Shown here: piece by piece, positions 6,573 through 61,481 of the stretch | How positions within the stretch are numbered: position 1 is the stretch's first letter | Layout of the letters: every line of letters starts with the position of its first letter | Assembly (NCBI RefSeq): GCF_058153355.1 | Contig: NZ_CM177019.1 | Reading direction: 5' to 3' (one strand) | Length of the DNA stretch: 64,000 nucleotides | Program-made: the position numbers and the translations under genes | Notes under the pieces: generated by a model | Seen by the model: only the letters and a program-made list of their open reading frames with translations | Database searches by the model: none | Told to the model about the DNA's origin: nothing

Positions 6573-6798
6573 CGACTAAAAACCTCTTTGCGTCACATTT
6601 TTACAACAATTATTGCAGAGAAGATTAATGCCATTGGATTGAAGAAAGTGAGGAATGGTTAAACTGGCTAACCCGAATGACGAAAAATTCTGGAAAACAG
6701 CACGCTATTTCGTGAAGTGATTATTTTCGTCCCTAAGGAAACCTCATAGGATGCTCACGGGTGCCTGAGACTTTCTGTTTTCAGGCTAACCGGGAATC

Positions 6799-6846
6799 AG
6801 AAAGACGAAGGCCCCGACCGATATTTCTATCAACCGAGGCCAACGA

Positions 6847-6858
<12 letters not shown>
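6799..6858 (-). ncRNA. sokB: SokB antisense RNA (antitoxin of hokB); ends approximate
   Basis: antisense to mokB start region; candidate promoter TTGCCG-N17-TAACAT on minus strand inside mokB 5' end; hairpin and U-rich tail; coordinates inferred. Confidence 0.35.
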
Positions 6859-7054
<196 letters not shown>

Positions 7055-7125
7055 GGGCAAGCGCGGGGATTTTCCCCGCGCATCTGACTAGCGGATTCAG
7101 TTTCTCATGGCACCCCTTTTACACT

Positions 7126-7299: not shown

Positions 7300-7543
7300 A
7301 TAACCTCCATGATTTATCGAATCTTATGTTCGATTTGAACGTTATACGCTGGTTTATTTTGATACCGTTGATGAGATCAAAGATCGGGTGAATTGATTAA
7401 AGATAAGCCAGATGGACATATGGACAAGGATTATGGTTTTATTTGTCATACAAATAAATATAATAGGCGCTTCCGATGTAGGCCCGTATTCTTCGCCTGT
7501 ACCACGGGTCGGTTTTAGTACAGGCGTTTTCTTTAAATATCCT

Positions 7544-40400: not shown

Positions 40401-40961
40401 CTGGATACGCAATGCTATTCCAACACCGGTGGTCAGGCGTCGAAAGCGACACCGCTGGGTGCAGTAACTAAATTTGGCGAGCACGGCAAACGTAAAGCGC
40501 GTAAAGATCTTGGCGTCAGTATGATGATGTACGGTCATGTTTATGTGGCGCAAATTTCTCTCGGCGCGCAGCTCAACCAGACAGTGAAAGCGATTCAGGA
40601 AGCAGAAGCGTATCCGGGACCATCGCTGATCATCGCTTATAGCCCGTGTGAAGAGCATGGTTACGATCTGGCACTCAGTCACGACCAGATGCGCCAACTC
40701 ACTGCCACCGGCTTCTGGCCGCTATATCGCTTCGATCCACGTCGAGCCGATGAAGGCAAACTACCGCTGGCACTGGATTCACGCCCGCCGTCAGAAGCAC
40801 TGGAAGAAACGTTACTTCACGAGCAGCGTTTCCGTCGTCTGAATTCACAGCAGCCAGAAGTGGCAGAACAGTTATGGAAAGATGCCGTAGCTGATTTGCA
40901 AAAACGCTATGACTTCCTGGCACAAATGGCCGGAAAAGCGGAAAAAAGCAACACCGATTAA
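37437..40961 (+). CDS. ydbK: pyruvate:flavodoxin oxidoreductase (PFOR)
   Basis: 1174-aa ORF with 4Fe-4S ferredoxin cysteine clusters (CTQCNHCVAACP, CTGCNLCVEVCP) and TPP-binding region; matches YdbK/Pfo. Confidence 0.95.
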   Translation: MITIDGNGAVASVAFRTSEVIAIYPITPSSTMAEQADAWAGNGLKNVWGDTPRVVEMQSEAGAIATVHGALQTGALSTSFTSSQGLLLMIPTLYKLAGELTPFVLHVAARTVATHALSIFGDHSDVMAVRQTGCAMLCAANVQEAQDFALISHIATLKSRVPFIHFFDGFRTSHEINKIVPLADDTILELMPQAEIDAHRARALNPEHPVIRGTSANPDTYFQSREATNPWYNAVYDHVEQAMNDFAAATGRQYQPFEYYGHPQAERVIILMGSAIDTCEEVVDELLTRGEKVGVLKVRLYRPFSAKHLLQALPDSVRTVAVLDRTKEPGAQAEPLYLDVMTALAEAFNNGERETLPRVIGGRYGLSSKEFGPDCVLAVFAELNAAKPKARFTVGIYDDVTNLSLPLPENTLPNSAKLEALFYGLGSDGSVSATKNNIKIIGNSTPWYAQGYFVYDSKKAGGLTVSHLRVSEQPIRSAYLISQADFVGCHQLQFIDKYQMAERLKPGGIFLLNTPYSADEVWSRLPQEVQAVLNQKKARFYVINAAKIARECGLAARINTVMQMAFFHLTQILPGDSALAELQGAIAKSYSSKGQDLVERNWQALALARESVEEVPLQPVNPHSANRPPVVSDAAPDFVKTVTAAMLAGLGDALPVSALPPDGTWPMGTTRWEKRNIAEEIPIWKEELCTQCNHCVAACPHSAIRAKVVPPEAMENAPASLHSLDVKSRDMRGQKYVLQVAPEDCTGCNLCVEVCPAKDRQDPEIKAINMMSRLEHVEEEKINYDFFLNLPEIDRSKLERIDIRTSQLITPLFEYSGACSGCGETPYIKLLTQLYGDRMLIANATGCSSIYGGNLPSTPYTTDANGRGPAWANSLFEDNAEFGLGFRLTVDQHRVRVLRLLDQFADKIPAELLTALKSDATPEVRREQVAALRQQLNDVAEAHELLRDADALVEKSIWLIGGDGWAYDIGFGGLDHVLSLTENVNILVLDTQCYSNTGGQASKATPLGAVTKFGEHGKRKARKDLGVSMMMYGHVYVAQISLGAQLNQTVKAIQEAEAYPGPSLIIAYSPCEEHGYDLALSHDQMRQLTATGFWPLYRFDPRRADEGKLPLALDSRPPSEALEETLLHEQRFRRLNSQQPEVAEQLWKDAVADLQKRYDFLAQMAGKAEKSNTD

Positions 40962-40990
40962 ATGCTCTGGATAAGGATTATCCAATTCTA

Positions 40991-41099
40991 AAAAAAAGCC
41001 CGAACGACTGTTCGGGCTTGTCTTCTTATATGTTGGAAAATCAGTGGCAATGCAATGGCCCAACAGAAAATAAAATCTGTGACAATAAAGGCATATAAC
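40991..41099 (-). ncRNA. micC: MicC sRNA (Hfq-dependent repressor of ompC/ompD)
   Basis: minus strand reads GTTATATGCCTTTATTGTCACAGATTTTATTTTCTGTTGGGCCATTGCATTGCC...GCCCGAACAGTCGTTCGGGCTTTTTTTT, recognised as MicC; terminator shared with ydbK. Confidence 0.85.
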
Positions 41100-41326
41100 C
41101 CGCGCAGAATAACGTATAGCAAATTAAAAGTATAATTTTTATTTTGTATGTATTATCTTCGATACATTCACCAGACTTATTATCATTTCAGAGGAATTAT
41201 TTGATTAAGGTTTTACTTAAGGCGTAACAAATGATATTTATCGGCTAACTGAACTTCTCCTTTAGGATGTTTTCATTCCCCGAAATGGGGATAAAAGGCA
41301 AATAAAATAACTAAAGGATTTATTCA

Positions 41327-42460
41327 ATGAAAAGCAAAGTACTGGCACTTTTAATTCCTGCCCTGCTCGCCGCAGGTGCTGCACATGCAGCCGAAGTTTA
41401 TAATAAAGACGGCAACAAATTAGATCTGTATGGCAAAGTTGATGGCCTGCATTATTTTTCTGATAATTCAGCGAAAGATGGCGACCAGAGCTATGCGCGT
41501 CTGGGTTTTAAAGGCGAAACCCAAATTAACGATCAACTTACTGGCTACGGTCAATGGGAATACAATATTCAGGCAAACAACACTGAATCTTCAAAAAACC
41601 AGTCATGGACCCGTCTGGCATTTGCCGGACTGAAATTTGCAGATTACGGTTCTTTCGATTACGGACGTAATTATGGCGTAATGTACGACATCGAAGGCTG
41701 GACCGATATGCTGCCTGAATTTGGCGGTGACTCTTATACCAATGCAGACAACTTTATGACTGGTCGTGCCAATGGCGTCGCGACTTATCGTAACACTGAT
41801 TTCTTCGGTCTGGTAAATGGTCTGAACTTCGCGGTGCAGTATCAAGGTAACAACGAAGGAGCCAGTAATGGTCAGGAAGGCACCAACAACGGACGTGATG
41901 TTCGCCATGAAAACGGTGACGGCTGGGGTCTTTCCACAACATATGATTTAGGCATGGGCTTTAGCGCTGGTGCGGCATACACCTCTTCTGACCGCACCAA
42001 TGACCAGGTTAACCATACTGCGGCTGGTGGTGATAAAGCAGACGCGTGGACTGCTGGGCTAAAATACGATGCTAACAATATTTACCTGGCAACCATGTAT
42101 TCAGAAACGCGTAATATGACCCCGTTTGGCGACAGCGATTATGCTGTTGCAAACAAAACCCAGAACTTTGAAGTCACTGCACAGTACCAGTTTGATTTTG
42201 GTCTGCGTCCGGCAGTCTCTTTCCTGATGTCTAAAGGCCGTGACCTGCACGCTACCGGTGGTGCAGACAACCCGGCAGGTGTTGATGATAAAGATCTTGT
42301 AAAATACGCCGATGTTGGCGCGACTTACTATTTCAATAAAAATATGTCCACTTATGTTGACTATAAAATCAACCTGTTGGATGAAGATGACAGTTTCTAT
42401 GCTGCTAACGGCATCTCTACCGATGATATTGTCGCTTTAGGTCTGGTTTATCAGTTCTAA
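41327..42460 (+). CDS. ompN: outer membrane porin N
   Basis: 377-aa ORF with signal peptide and porin C-terminus (...VALGLVYQF); matches OmpN. Confidence 0.95.
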
Positions 42461-43067: not shown

Positions 43068-43123
43068 GATTCATTTCGCAAATGTGCTGACATTTTCCCC
43101 TCTAATCATTACAATTTAAATTT

Positions 43124-43735
43124 ATGAATTATGCATTGATAATCGCTATTATAATATCGTTCCCCTGTGCATTATTATCAGTTTTTCTGGTATTAAAAGA
43201 CTGGGCGCTAATAGGAGATGCAATGAACCACGCAATGTTTCCTGGCATAGTTCTAGCCTGGATTATAGGTATGCCGCTGGGAATTGGTGCATTTATTGTA
43301 GGACTGTCTTGTGCAATTGCAACTGGCTATCTGAAAGATAATAGCATCATAAAGAAAGATACCATTATAGGTATCGTTTTTTCAGGAATTTTTGTCTTGA
43401 CTATCAACAGGCACAAGTCAGCGGATTACAGATATCATTATTACATTACGGTTTACTCTGCATGGTATCGCCTACCATTTTTGCCACATTAAAAGCAGTC
43501 GGAATTATTCTGTCTATATACTATTAATAGCTCCAGGGTCTATTGCTGTCCTCATCACGCATCGCTTTCATAAGACATTACTTATCGCCGTAACGATATC
43601 AATAACAATATCAGGCGTATGGTTATTATATTTTCTCGACAGAGCCCCAGCGCCGACAATCGTCCTCTTATTTGCTGTAGCATTTCTTTTCGCGCTTATA
43701 ATAATCAATTTTCGGAAACAATAATCTCAACAGTA
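43124..43735 (+). pseudogene. decayed ABC-3 family (Mn/Zn/Fe) transporter permease gene, frameshifted and internally truncated
   Basis: frame of 43124..43492 encodes an ABC-3 permease-like N-terminus (DAMNHAMFPGIVLAW, TIIGIVFSGIFVLTI); permease-like C-terminus (LLIAPGSIAVLITHRFHKTLLIAVTISITISGVWLLYFLDRAPAPTIVLLFAVAFLF) continues in another frame to stop at 43733..43735; AT-rich. Confidence 0.5.
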
Positions 43736-44991
43736 GAATAAAGAGGCAAATCAATCATTACATATATAAGATGGTGCTAATATTGCACCGCCTTTAAATT
43801 GAACTTTATCCTTTCACCCTTACACAATTTAAGGAATGCAGATGACTATTTTATCAGCACCCAGCCTTTTTCCTGGTAATCGAAAACTTGAAAATCATTA
43901 ACTCTAAGAAATTCTGCCAAATCGTTGAAATTACTTTAAATTAGACTCGAACAAATCAACCCCTGATGGGGCTTTTACTTATCCATTTAATCGGGTATAT
44001 ATCGACCTCCATCTGCCCGCCTCAGATTCGTACCTGGTGGAGGTCTTTTTTCGTTACCTCTTTCCCCCTTTAGTTCAGTATAAAATCATCAAACTAATGC
44101 TGTTCACACTATTTACCTCCAGCATTCTATATAAATAATAGAAATAAAAACCCCAATACATAGTGCATTGGCATGACCAAACATCAATGCCATTATACTC
44201 GCCTCTGTTAAATACTCGCTAGTTAATATGATAGGCACGCATGATATAACAATCCATATGCTAATACATAAATACACCAGTATTTTTCTCATAGTCAGTC
44301 CCTGTGATTAACAATCAAGGCATAGTTAAGCATATTTCACATTCAAACGTAAACATTATTAATAACATTATGTCAATCGAACTGACATCACGATTCAAGC
44401 CCTCTTCAGACTGAAGGCTAGAGCAGCGTAGAACATTTCAAAACAATACACTGAAAAAATACTTGAACAAAAAACTTAATTCTTTTTTATTGTGAACTTT
44501 AGTAATTTTGTCATGCAACTCTTTATTACATTTAGGCCTATCTTATTTCATGGCAACGCAAATACAGGACCATTTCTTGTGCTATGGATAAGTAATAAGC
44601 TAGTTACATCTTATTAAGAGAACCATTTTCACATATCAAAATATCATCACCACCCACAATGAATTAAGTATTTTTCTTATTCTTTAGATTAGATACGTAA
44701 TGAATCCCTAACTCCATTCGGGTGTCATGGCTCTTTCATTTGAAATACATTCATATCCAATGTAATATTTCTATGCGCAAATATAACTACCGACCATACT
44801 CATCATTTATTACAGAGAATTATTTTATTCACCGAAAAGTTTCACAAAATATCCCCTGATAGAAAACTAAAAAACACTGCATAATATCGCTATTCTGGCA
44901 CTTGCGAAAAATTATATTCTGCACCTGTTGTAGCGTTCTATTTCTCCGCCTGGCAACGAATGCACAATGTCCGCCACAGTTTCTGTTCTAA

Positions 44992-45309
44992 TTTCTTCCT
45001 GTGTTACCGCATCCTGTACGGGTAGCGCAACACCAGCATGCTAAGCAAGGCTTTCCCATCAGATTTCACTACGACTATTTGGGAGCGAGATGGAATGCAG
45101 CAGTAAAACGTGCTGGTATTCGCCGCCGTAATCCGTACCATACGCGACATACTTTTGCCTGCTGGCTGTTGACGGCAGGAGCGAACCCGGCATTTATAGC
45201 CAGCCAGATGGGGCATGAAACTGCGCAGATGGTGTATGAAATTTACGGTATGTGGATTGATGACATGAACGACGAACAGGTAGCTATGTTGAATGCGCGG
45301 TTATCGTAG
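44992..45309 (+). pseudogene. 3' fragment of a tyrosine-recombinase (Rac-type prophage integrase) gene
   Basis: open frame encodes only the integrase C-terminal catalytic region (RRNPYHTRHTFACWLLTAGANPAFIASQMGHETAQMVYEIYGMW) with no N-terminal domains; directly upstream of ttcA where K-12 carries intR. Confidence 0.7.
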
Positions 45310-45360
45310 TTGCAAAGTTTGCCCCCAATTTGCCCCATTTAGTACCAGAGAACTGAAATA

Positions 45361-46296
45361 ATGCAAGAAAATCAAAAGAATACGAAGAAAGAGATATACA
45401 ATCTGAACAAATTACAAAAACGTCTGCGTCGTAACGTGGGCGAAGCCATTGCTGACTTCAATATGATTGAAGAAGGCGATCGCATCATGGTTTGCCTCTC
45501 CGGGGGTAAAGACAGCTATACCATGCTGGAGATTCTGCGCAATTTGCAGCAAAGCGCGCCAATCAATTTTTCGCTGGTGGCTGTTAACCTCGATCAAAAG
45601 CAACCGGGCTTCCCGGAACACGTTCTGCCCGAGTATCTTGAAAAGCTGGGCATTGAGTACAAGATTGTGGAAGAGAACACTTACGGTATCGTGAAAGAGA
45701 AGATTCCGGAGGGCAAAACCACTTGCTCACTGTGTTCTCGTCTTCGTCGCGGAATTCTTTACCGTACCGCAACGGAACTGGGAGCGACGAAGATCGCGCT
45801 GGGTCACCATCGTGACGATATCCTGCAAACGTTGTTCTTAAATATGTTCTACGGCGGCAAGATGAAAGGTATGCCTCCGAAACTGATGAGCGATGATGGC
45901 AAACATATTGTGATTCGTCCGCTGGCCTACTGCCGCGAGAAAGATATTCAGCGCTTTGCCGATGCAAAAGCGTTCCCGATTATTCCTTGCAACCTGTGCG
46001 GTTCACAGCCTAACCTGCAACGTCAGGTGATTGCTGACATGTTGCGTGACTGGGATAAACGTTATCCGGGGCGTATCGAGACGATGTTCAGCGCGATGCA
46101 GAATGTGGTGCCGTCGCATCTGTGCGATACCAACCTGTTCGATTTCAAAGGCATTACCCACGGTTCTGAAGTGGTTAACGGGGGTGATCTGGCGTTTGAT
46201 CGCGAAGAGATCCCTCTACAACCGGCGGGTTGGCAGCCTGAAGAAGATGAAAATCAGTTGGATGAGTTACGACTGAATGTGGTGGAAGTGAAATAA
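45361..46296 (+). CDS. ttcA: tRNA-cytidine(32) 2-sulfurtransferase
   Basis: 311-aa ORF with PP-loop SGGKDS and CxxC motifs; matches TtcA. Confidence 0.95.
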
Positions 46297-48059: not shown

Positions 48060-48181
48060 AAAAAAAAGCCGACTCATCAAAGTCGGCGTCGTACGAATCA
48101 ATTGTGCTATGCAGTAATTCAAAAAAGGAAGTAAGACAATATGGAGCGCAACGCCCATCGCTTGACGTTGCATTCACCTGC
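48060..48181 (-). ncRNA. fnrS: FnrS sRNA (FNR-activated, Hfq-dependent)
   Basis: minus strand reads GCAGGTGAATGCAACGTCAAGCGATGGGCGTTGCGCTCCATATTGTCTTACTTCCTTTTTTGAATTACTGCATAGCAC...GCCGACTTTGATGAGTCGGCTTTTTTTT, recognised as FnrS with intrinsic terminator. Confidence 0.85.
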
Positions 48182-51557: not shown

Positions 51558-51651
51558 ACCGGCGCAGAGGAGACCATGCCGGATTTAAGACGCGGATGCA
51601 CTGCTGTGTGTACTGTAGAGTCTGGCGGATGTCGACAGACTCTATTTTTTT
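51558..51651 (+). ncRNA. mcaS: McaS sRNA (IsrA)
   Basis: ACCGGCGCAGAGGAGACCATGCCGGATTTAAGACGCGGATGCACTGCTGTGTGTACTGTAGAGTCTGGCGGATGTCGACAGACTCTATTTTTTT recognised as McaS; terminal hairpin plus T7; between smrA and abgR. Confidence 0.7.
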
Positions 51652-51659
51652 ATGCAGTT

Positions 51660-59637: not shown

Positions 59638-59687
59638 TGACTCTTCAATAACTGACAAGGCCCGATTTATCGGGCCTATTTTTTTAA

Positions 59688-59945
59688 TTACTGCTCCTCG
59701 CCGCCAAGGAAATAAATTCCCAACGGGATTGCCAGCAACACAGTAAAGACCAGGCTATAAACAAAAATCATTGATGACTGAATCACATACATTGATGTCG
59801 TCCACTCAGACAGCGGAATATTGTACTGTTCTATCACGCCGCCGATGGTCGCGCGAGTCACAACCGACGCCGCAATAATGAAAACCGCCAACAAACCAAA
59901 GAGAAATTTCTTCCCTTTCGCTGACTTCAGTTTCGCCATAATCAT
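59688..59945 (-). CDS. ynaJ: small inner membrane protein YnaJ
   Basis: 85-aa ORF with two hydrophobic helices; matches YnaJ. Confidence 0.85.
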   Translation of the reverse strand: MIMAKLKSAKGKKFLFGLLAVFIIAASVVTRATIGGVIEQYNIPLSEWTTSMYVIQSSMIFVYSLVFTVLLAIPLGIYFLGGEEQ

Positions 59946-60029: not shown

Positions 60030-60042
60030 CACCTCTTAGCTG
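60030..60042. repeat. 13-bp target-site duplication (left copy) of IS4
   Basis: CACCTCTTAGCTG immediately outside the IS4 left end; identical copy at 61469..61481. Confidence 0.85.
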
Positions 60043-61468
60043 TAATGCCAGTCAGTTAAGCAACTGACTGGCTCTTTTTCGGGGCTGTGGGGTATTTCCA
60101 GGGCCTCTCCTTTACCACTCTCGGGAAGGCCCTTTCCCTTCTTGTCGGTAATTTCACAAGTTGTCCCATACTTGCAAGATCGCGCATCAGCTCCGGTATA
60201 CGTCCCGGTGAAGCGCCCTGCAATGTCATCAGCATTCTCATCACCATTCCGCATGATTCTGAGAAACTCAGTTGATTCGGCCAGTAACCTTTCAGATGTT
60301 CCGCCATTTTAATCATCTGATATCTCACCAGATTATAAGCCAGTAAGACACCCCACAGCTCTTGCTCCACAAGCTCCGGCTTTTTACTTCTCAGCGTCAG
60401 CCTGCTCAGTTGCATCGTCTGTTTTATCTCCCTGTATCCCAGTTCGATTTCCCAGCGATGACTGTACAGATCCGCCATTTCTCCTCCGGGGAAGCGCATG
60501 GCGTCCGTCATCGACGTCAGCAGATGGCAGACTTTTCCTTTGCGCGTCACGGTCAGCAGGCGGGCTGTCACTTCATTTCCCAGTCCCGGCCACTTTTTTC
60601 GTGCCTGCGGGCTGGTTTTCAGCTTCACCAGATGATCGCCTTTACCCAGTTTTCTGATCTCTTCATATTGCGCTCCCTTTCTGAGAGGTATCATCCAGTG
60701 GCGGTGTTCTCCCGCCAGGCTCCAGGCATTTAACAGTCCCAGTGAGTAATAACCTTTATCCATTAACGTCAGAGTGTTATCGCCGGTTTGTTCTATAAGT
60801 TGCTCAGCAAGCTCATTTTCGCTGTTCTTCATCGTGCCGAAGGCTGCAGCCGTCAGCAGATGGCTGGTCAGTTCCATCTGGCAGACCATTTTGACCTGCG
60901 GGTAGAGCGCCGGGTTCCCGGCATGTGTCTGGCGGGGGAAGGCTGCATCGTTCTCTGGTGTATCCGGTGTGCGCCAGAACACACCATCGATGGCCAGCAG
61001 GGTCAGGCCGCACCAGTGCGGATGCGGCGTGGCGTTATGCCAGAGCTGCGCTGTTTTCGTGAACACGCGGCGGACAGCCTCACTTCCCAGGCGCTGGCGG
61101 GCCTGAATAACGGCACTGGGGGCAACGAAGGGGCGATTGCCCGGCAGCATGATGTCCAGGCGATTCACAATCTGGTGAAGAGGTTCTTTACGCTCAAGCG
61201 CCATGCCAACAATACACCAGACCATCATTTCGAGGGGAAGACGGCGCTTGCGTAGCGTTACAGTACCTGATTCGGCAAGGCAACGAGAGATGAGTTCGGG
61301 GTCGAGGTAATCCCCCAGAGAAGTCAGTGGGTTACGCAGAGAATCGTAACGGGATACCAGATCAAGAGCCTGTCCAATGTGCATAAAAAAATCCGGAAAC
61401 AAGTGAGCGTTTCCGGATTCTTACACAGCCACTGGATCGGTCAACTGATCCTTAACTGATCGGCATTA
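60043..61468 (-). mobile_element. insertion sequence IS4, complete (1426 bp)
   Basis: ends TAATGCCAGTCAGTTAAG... and ...CTTAACTGATCGGCATTA (imperfect terminal inverted repeats); encodes IS4 transposase; flanked by 13-bp direct repeats. Confidence 0.9.
60056..61384 (-). CDS. insG: IS4 transposase InsG
   Basis: ORF opens at 61402; conserved 442-aa product starts at [20 protein letters not shown]; IS4-family DDE transposase. Confidence 0.9.
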
Positions 61469-61481
61469 CACCTCTTAGCTG
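61469..61481. repeat. 13-bp target-site duplication (right copy) of IS4
   Basis: CACCTCTTAGCTG immediately outside the IS4 right end. Confidence 0.85.

Follow-up and report, generated by a model that had tools for sequence, protein, structure and literature searches.

Shared two-way terminators are common between convergent genes of Escherichia coli, and the described examples closest to the element reported here lie between ynaJ and uspE (Ju 2019; bioRxiv 10.1101/2022.10.23.513370) and between can and hpt (PMC6131387). Each consists of one GC-rich palindrome with a good U-tract in one direction and an interrupted U-tract (UUGUC...) in the other, and in each the 3′ ends of the two RNAs overlap and read-through is unequal by direction. 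When ynaJ-uspE was transcribed from one side only in single-molecule experiments, release was 9% toward the shorter U-tract and 39% toward the other (bioRxiv 10.1101/2022.10.23.513370); judging from the sequence, we assigned the 9% side to ynaJ. Knowledge of the small RNA MicC, of its terminator, and of the location of its gene, with ompN on one side and ydbK on the other, dates from 2004. The micF-ompC locus likewise has a porin-regulating sRNA divergent from a porin gene (PMC5745476); that likeness is limited to the promoter side and is silent on the terminator that micC has in common with ydbK.

We describe here the micC-ydbK element in a 64,000-nucleotide stretch of DNA (contig NZ_CM177019.1 of assembly GCF_058153355.1; hereafter, the window), an E. 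coli chromosome segment extending from rimL/ydcH to tyrR. We propose, with a probability of roughly 0.8, that the hairpin at 40996–41019 is a two-way Rho-independent terminator common to the convergent genes micC and ydbK, a proposal that draws on K-12 data for ydbK. In its flanks, with ompN divergent and ydbK convergent, the locus is the same as that of K-12 MicC (b4427, IS063; RF00121). It differs from ynaJ-uspE and can-hpt in that an Hfq-dependent sRNA of 110 nt takes the place of one of the two mRNAs, in that the strong side doubles as the presumed Hfq-binding end of that sRNA, and in having a longer stem, of 10 bp. The uspE/ynaJ convergent pair, whose hairpin is the published model of a bidirectional terminator, also lies within the window, with the hairpin GGCCCGA-TTTA-TCGGGCC at 59655–59695 (approximately 59660–59690); it has a U7 on the uspE side and the tail UUGUCAGU on the ynaJ side, and this weak side is nearly identical to the ydbK side of the element described here.

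The features of the locus are collected in Table 1. The ydbK product contained the Pfam domains POR_N, POR, EKR, PFOR_II, and Fer4, a genome of 99.5% identity carries a RefSeq annotation of nifJ at this position, and the stop codon is a TAA at 40959–40961 (+). The Rfam MicC model (RF00121) matched along its full length (model positions 1–123 of 123) at 40982–41102 on the minus strand, with 124.4 bits relative to a gathering score of 90 and an E value of 4.6e-20. The conserved 5′ targeting region of MicC, GUUAUAUGCCUUUAUUGUCAC, was present and identical to that of MG1655, and the 5′ 60 nt were identical to those of K-12. The hairpin and its U8 correspond to the terminal stem and tail of the Rfam model, and RefSeq annotation places the 3′ end of the K-12 orthologue within the U-run, at 1437229–1437231 (+). 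From the Rfam match, the U8 tail, and this annotation, it is certain that the hairpin is the MicC terminator, as had been claimed in a sequence-only reading of the window, which described it as intrinsic with a U-run on the minus strand. In sRNAs of the MicC class, a 3′ hairpin followed by poly-U is the module bound by Hfq; the 10-bp stem and U8 at the 3′ end of MicC thus make up both a terminator and a predicted Hfq-binding end. The 5′ end of micC is the G at 41099, and micC and ompN are divergent with a gap of 227 nt between them, the same length as a cloned intergenic fragment (PMC5745476). The positions of the ORFs and of the Rfam match bore out two further statements of the sequence-only reading, that micC and ydbK are convergent and that micC, starting at 41099 (−), is transcribed away from ompN, which begins at 41327 (+).

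Table 1. Features of the micC-ydbK locus and other small RNAs in the window (window coordinates)
Feature	Position	Strand	Basis
ydbK (nifJ/pfo) CDS, pyruvate:flavodoxin/ferredoxin oxidoreductase, 1174 aa	37437..40961	+	ORF list, Pfam, RefSeq
Equivalent of reported K-12 TSS (1437301, minus), within the last 14 ydbK codons	40920	+	dRNA-seq; mapped onto the window here
Predicted ydbK 3′ UTR, ~62 nt, with its end 6 nt beyond the GC stem	40962..41023	+	Expected for the window allele from the K-12 TTS
micC sRNA gene, ~110 nt, 5′ GUUAUAUGCC...	40990..41099	−	Rfam RF00121 match; alignment to MG1655 micC b4427, 1437121–1437231
A8 on + / U8 on −: poly-U tail of MicC; A-tract preceding the hairpin in the ydbK sense	40990..40997	both	Sequence
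Terminator hairpin in common, 10 bp, 4-nt loop; GC core 40998–41017	40996..41019	both	Terminator scan, folds
Tail in the ydbK sense, UUGUCUUCUUAU; imperfect U-tract with U at 5 of the first 8 positions	41018..41029	+	Sequence
ompN porin gene	41327..42460	+	ORF; Pfam Porin_1, E 1e-145; RefSeq
sok antitoxin	6759–6910	+	Rfam
RydC	7470–7533	+	Rfam
FnrS	48064–48181	−	Rfam
McaS	51558–51653	+	Rfam

Elsewhere in the window, several segments distinguish it from NZ_CP169399.1, to which it is otherwise 99% identical. Approximately 2.26 kb between uspF and ttcA (43107–45368) is absent from that genome; within it are a truncated ABC-3 family permease ORF (43124–43492) and, adjoining ttcA, a phage-integrase C-terminal fragment (45001–45309), and it looks like the remnant of an element integrated at the Rac attachment region. 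Just beyond ynaJ, at 60042–61469, the window has an insertion of 1.43 kb relative to the same genome, and this insertion carries on the minus strand a 448-aa ORF for an IS4-type transposase (Pfam Nterm_IS4 + DDE_Tnp_1). Approximately 340 bp at 6767–7110, overlapping the sok match, had no megablast match in NZ_CP169399.1.

The plus strand at the locus reads ...GAT TAA ATGCTCTGGATAAGGATTATCCAATTCT A8 GCCCGAAC GACT GTTCGGGC TTGTCTTCTTAT..., in which the GC core at 40998–41017 (+) is GCCCGAACGACTGTTCGGGC, that is, GCCCGAAC-GACT-GTTCGGGC, and two flanking A:T pairs lengthen the hairpin to 40996–41019. The core begins 36 nt past the ydbK stop, the extended stem 34 nt, and the A-run, which is the annotated 3′ end of MicC, 28 nt; the distance of 25 nt stated in the sequence-only reading was wrong. 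A 46-nt segment folded with a free energy of −17.4 kcal/mol as read on the plus strand and −19.5 kcal/mol as read on the minus strand (z-scores of −5.4 and −6.3, respectively), and none of 200 shuffles was as stable. A consensus terminator scan flagged the hairpin on both strands, a scan that is undiscriminating when used alone, as 3 sites were found and 3.6 were expected in shuffles. In the micC direction, a GC-rich stem-loop is followed by U8 at the end of the transcription unit, the arrangement of an intrinsic terminator; in the ydbK direction, the GC-rich stem-loop lies 3′ of the stop codon. The ydbK-side tail, UUGUCUUC, has U at five of its eight positions and is above the scan threshold, with a T-weight of 2.9 versus 5.2 on the micC side, and it is not conserved between genera; the sequence by itself suggests weak termination on the ydbK side. 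On the minus strand, the stem and the U8 behind it make a strong terminator for MicC and supply the sRNA with its hairpin and poly-U end; we propose that on the plus strand termination would use the palindrome, preceded by A8, and the imperfect U-tract UUGUCUUCUUAU that follows it.

To compare the element among enterobacteria, one genome per species was scanned with the conserved 5′ motif of MicC, which gave micC loci in 34 enterobacterial genomes; these, the window, and MG1655 made up a comparison set of 36 sequences. nifJ was convergent on micC in 35 of the 36, belonging to Escherichia, Citrobacter, Salmonella, Klebsiella, Superficieibacter, and Pseudocitrobacter, and its stop codon lay 22–41 nt from the stem; the exception (L033) is a locus whose contig has only 247 nt on that side. 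Eight of the ten stem pairs were invariant, the closing pair changed from C-G to U-A in four sequences, a compensatory change, and all loop positions varied, from which we conclude that the stem is under purifying selection. The tail on the micC side was T7 to T10 at all 36 loci (T-weight 4.7–6.1). The tail on the ydbK side opened with TTGTC at 35 of the 36 and then varied, with four to six U in eight positions (T-weight 2.3–3.3). TTGTC (UUGUC in the RNA) is the complement of the conserved GACAA of MicC, and the tail UUGUCUUCUUAU in full is complementary to the conserved segment ..AUAAGAAGACAA of MicC. These properties speak against a two-way terminator, as the ydbK-side U-tract appears to be poor and not to be conserved as a U-tract, and its invariant UUGUC is simply the complement of GACAA.

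Conservation of the stem across genera and its fixed position in MicC ruled out a chance hairpin, a REP element, and the end of a mobile element. In Salmonella enterica arizonae and diarizonae (L025 and L043) the nifJ-micC convergent terminator was kept, and tblastn found no ompN homologue within the ~3–4 kb of flank beyond micC; the linkage of micC with nifJ is thus more conserved than that of micC with ompN. The spacer between the ydbK stop and the terminator contains a small palindrome predicted in the minimum free energy fold, GGATAA-GGA-TTATCC at 40970–40984, the GGATAA and TTATCC arms of which were identical in eight of eight Escherichia sequences with three loop variants; relative to shuffles it was not significant (z of −1.2). 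Citrobacter has a different inverted repeat at the equivalent place, TTAATAC...GTATTAA, which overlaps the nifJ stop codon. We considered a second structured element in this spacer and rejected it as a part of the terminator, because the weak hairpins present there in many lineages are non-homologous and mostly non-significant (z of approximately −1 to −3).

Alignment of the window with MG1655 revealed three differences in the element, all of them within the 3′ module of MicC. The run is A8/U8 in the window and A9/U9 in K-12. At stem position 41003 the window has a perfect A-T pair, whereas K-12 has G on the ydbK strand, which gives a G·U pair in the ydbK sense and an A·C mismatch in the MicC sense. 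In the tail, at 41025, the window has TTGTCTTC and K-12 has TTGTCTTT, a difference that in MicC is G for A four nucleotides upstream of GACAA. The core stem of K-12 had energies of −13.3 kcal/mol in the ydbK sense and −9.3 kcal/mol in the MicC sense. When matches at 99% or more over a 100-nt segment were counted, the window version was present in 4 and the K-12 version in 3,587 of 5,426 complete E. coli genomes. Since the common K-12 allele has A·C in one sense and G·U in the other, the MicC form of the hairpin is less stable than its ydbK-strand form by approximately 4 kcal/mol in most E. coli. Other Escherichia species had perfect stems, with the exception of one sequence labelled E. coli E69 (L017), which has a C·A mismatch at the closing pair.

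Direct evidence of where ydbK transcripts end came from published SMRT-Cappable-seq, the sequencing of full-length primary transcripts, which for K-12 in rich medium reported a b1378 transcript from a TSS at 1440845 to a TTS at 1437197 (PMC6131387, Supplementary Data 1, Rich_TTS). The row reads 'NC_000913.3 1437197 1440845 reverse 203 49 9 1 93 novelTTS b1378'; that is, 203 reads start at the TSS, 49 end at the TTS, 9 pass it, and 1 ends within 50 bp downstream, and the median read-through past the TTS is 93 nt (PMC6131387). Among the 59 reads that reached the site, approximately 83% stopped there and approximately 15% continued. Counted along the ydbK strand, 1437197 is nucleotide six beyond the GC stem (GGGC-UUGUCU), equivalent to 41023 in the window. 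Its distance from the centre of the hairpin is 15.5 nt; the RegulonDB-known terminators in the same table lie at 14–19 nt. The site also fits the TTS motif of that study, which has GC-rich blocks at −24 to −20 and −10 to −7 (PMC6131387). The sequence-only reading had proposed one bidirectional terminator for micC and ydbK and had named 3′-end mapping as the way to check it; the K-12 ydbK TTS, 6 nt past the stem and with some leakage, supports that proposal. As the mapping concerns the K-12 allele, which has the three differences from the window described above, we infer that the window allele behaves like the K-12 allele, and also that the mapped end is made by termination and not by trimming. 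Most ydbK transcripts would then have their 3′ ends near 41023, approximately 6 nt beyond the GC stem, and a minority of approximately 15% would continue antisense through micC toward ompN.

Exonuclease trimming is another way in which 3′ ends at hairpins can originate, and the RNAs in a study of Rho-dependent transcripts reportedly ended at stem-loops after trimming. The hairpin might accordingly terminate micC only, with ydbK transcription stopping further on, through Rho or in the region of the micC promoter, and 3′-to-5′ exonucleases trimming the RNA back. We consider this unlikely, even though the ydbK-side U-tract is weak and unconserved and the weak side of ynaJ-uspE terminates poorly alone in vitro (bioRxiv 10.1101/2022.10.23.513370), because the mapped end is situated 6 nt past the stem, in the U-rich tail and at an offset like those of known intrinsic terminators in the same data, because only 9 of the 59 reads reaching the site extend more than 50 nt past it, and because the downstream RNA is AT-rich with no obvious C-rich rut site. 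No Rho-termination region was listed on the ydbK strand in Adams 2021, a result that also opposes trimming; expression there is low, so it is indecisive. The Term-seq tables of that study contained no 3′ end here on either strand and nothing for micC, ydbK, pfo, or positions 14371xx–14372xx, probably reflecting low expression, and their one relevant listing was a Rho region, at 1436165 and antisense to ompN (PMC7815308). The supplements of Dar 2018 (PLoS Genet) had nothing on the micC and ydbK genes, and searches of literature text for ydbK-ompN, for micC Term-seq, and for micC with pfo found nothing relevant.

The two-way terminator that we propose is leaky on its ydbK side, and the fate of the reads that pass it bears on the relation of ydbK to ompN. 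The median read-through of 93 nt ends at approximately 41116 (MG1655 ~1437104), which is approximately 17 nt beyond the micC +1 and inside the micC promoter; the polymerases that read through may be stopped there. The b1378 operon was scored as monocistronic by SMRT-Cappable-seq, as it is in RegulonDB (PMC6131387). According to PMC6176095, Fabrega 2012 reported that in a SoxS-constitutive strain ydbK and ompN are 'coexpressed in an operon', and the leak past the terminator fits such co-transcription. In addition, a TSS at 1437301 from the dRNA-seq of Thomason 2015, as tabulated in Table S1 of PMC7967276, is the only ompN-side TSS there; its equivalent at 40920 precedes ompN by 408 nt and the mapped ydbK 3′ end by 103 nt. 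Our scan found no consensus-like promoter at 40920, and this internal start is uncorroborated, since at the six coordinates searched (1437300–1437302 and 1435324–1435326) the Cappable-seq supplement (PMC4782308) lists nothing. A start at 40920 could give rise either to an RNA of 105 nt that ends at the terminator in common with micC and is antisense to MicC at its 3′ end, or to a long leader for ompN.

If transcripts from ydbK or from the internal start do proceed to ompN, the ydbK-strand hairpin might act mainly as an attenuator, either in a ydbK-ompN operon or in the ompN leader starting at 40920, that keeps the 'quiescent' porin gene ompN off as long as read-through does not increase. The co-expression under SoxS and the start inside ydbK, both known to us through the secondary sources cited above, and the nine reads that pass the TTS would be in keeping with such a role; in K-12 in rich medium, however, 83% of the reads stop and the median read-through falls short of ompN, the operon is scored as b1378 alone, and Salmonella keeps the nifJ-micC hairpin without an ompN homologue in the flank searched. 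We judge it quite improbable that attenuation is the main function of the hairpin; moreover, attenuation is a regulatory overlay on termination, not an alternative to it.

The convergent, asymmetric architecture that the locus has in common with ynaJ-uspE, where convergent transcription lowers read-through (bioRxiv 10.1101/2022.10.23.513370), also raises the idea that termination on the ydbK side is driven by head-on collisions with polymerases coming from micC, as in the model of Ju 2019 and Wang 2022. The stem of 10 bp here, compared with 7 bp in ynaJ-uspE, argues against a need for such collisions. In addition, Chen et al. in 2004 reportedly observed weak expression of MicC in rich medium at 37°C, the condition used in mapping the ydbK TTS, so collisions should have been rare, and we regard a dependence on them as very improbable. 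Trimming, attenuation, and collisions are each less well supported than a two-way terminator, and the latter two would be refinements of it, not replacements.

With the two-way terminator, the MicC and ydbK RNAs overlap tail-to-tail by 33–35 nt across the hairpin (K-12 3′ ends at 1437229–1437231 and 1437197, respectively), and the ydbK 3′ UTR is perfectly complementary to the terminator hairpin and poly-U tail of MicC, as the possible 105-nt RNA would be. Such an overlap might be regulatory, with ydbK transcription, driven by SoxS or sigma-S, lowering the amount of functional MicC; this could occur through pairing, RNase III cleavage, or read-through interference at the micC promoter. The prevalence in E. 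coli of an allele whose stem is weakened in the MicC sense alone would accord with selection on the ydbK strand. We found no evidence for such coupling of ydbK expression to MicC activity and hold it to be very doubtful; if true, it would tie porin control to oxidative-stress metabolism.

The arrangement itself is ordinary and is documented in E. coli, and the ydbK 3′ end was already present in a published dataset, only as a 'novelTTS'; the finding therefore matters little beyond correct annotation, for which a ydbK 3′ UTR of approximately 62 nt is useful. It does mean that the ydbK mRNA would carry an antisense copy of the 3′ end of MicC, and an asymmetric terminator, leaky on the ydbK side, would reconcile reports of a monocistronic ydbK with those of a ydbK-ompN operon.
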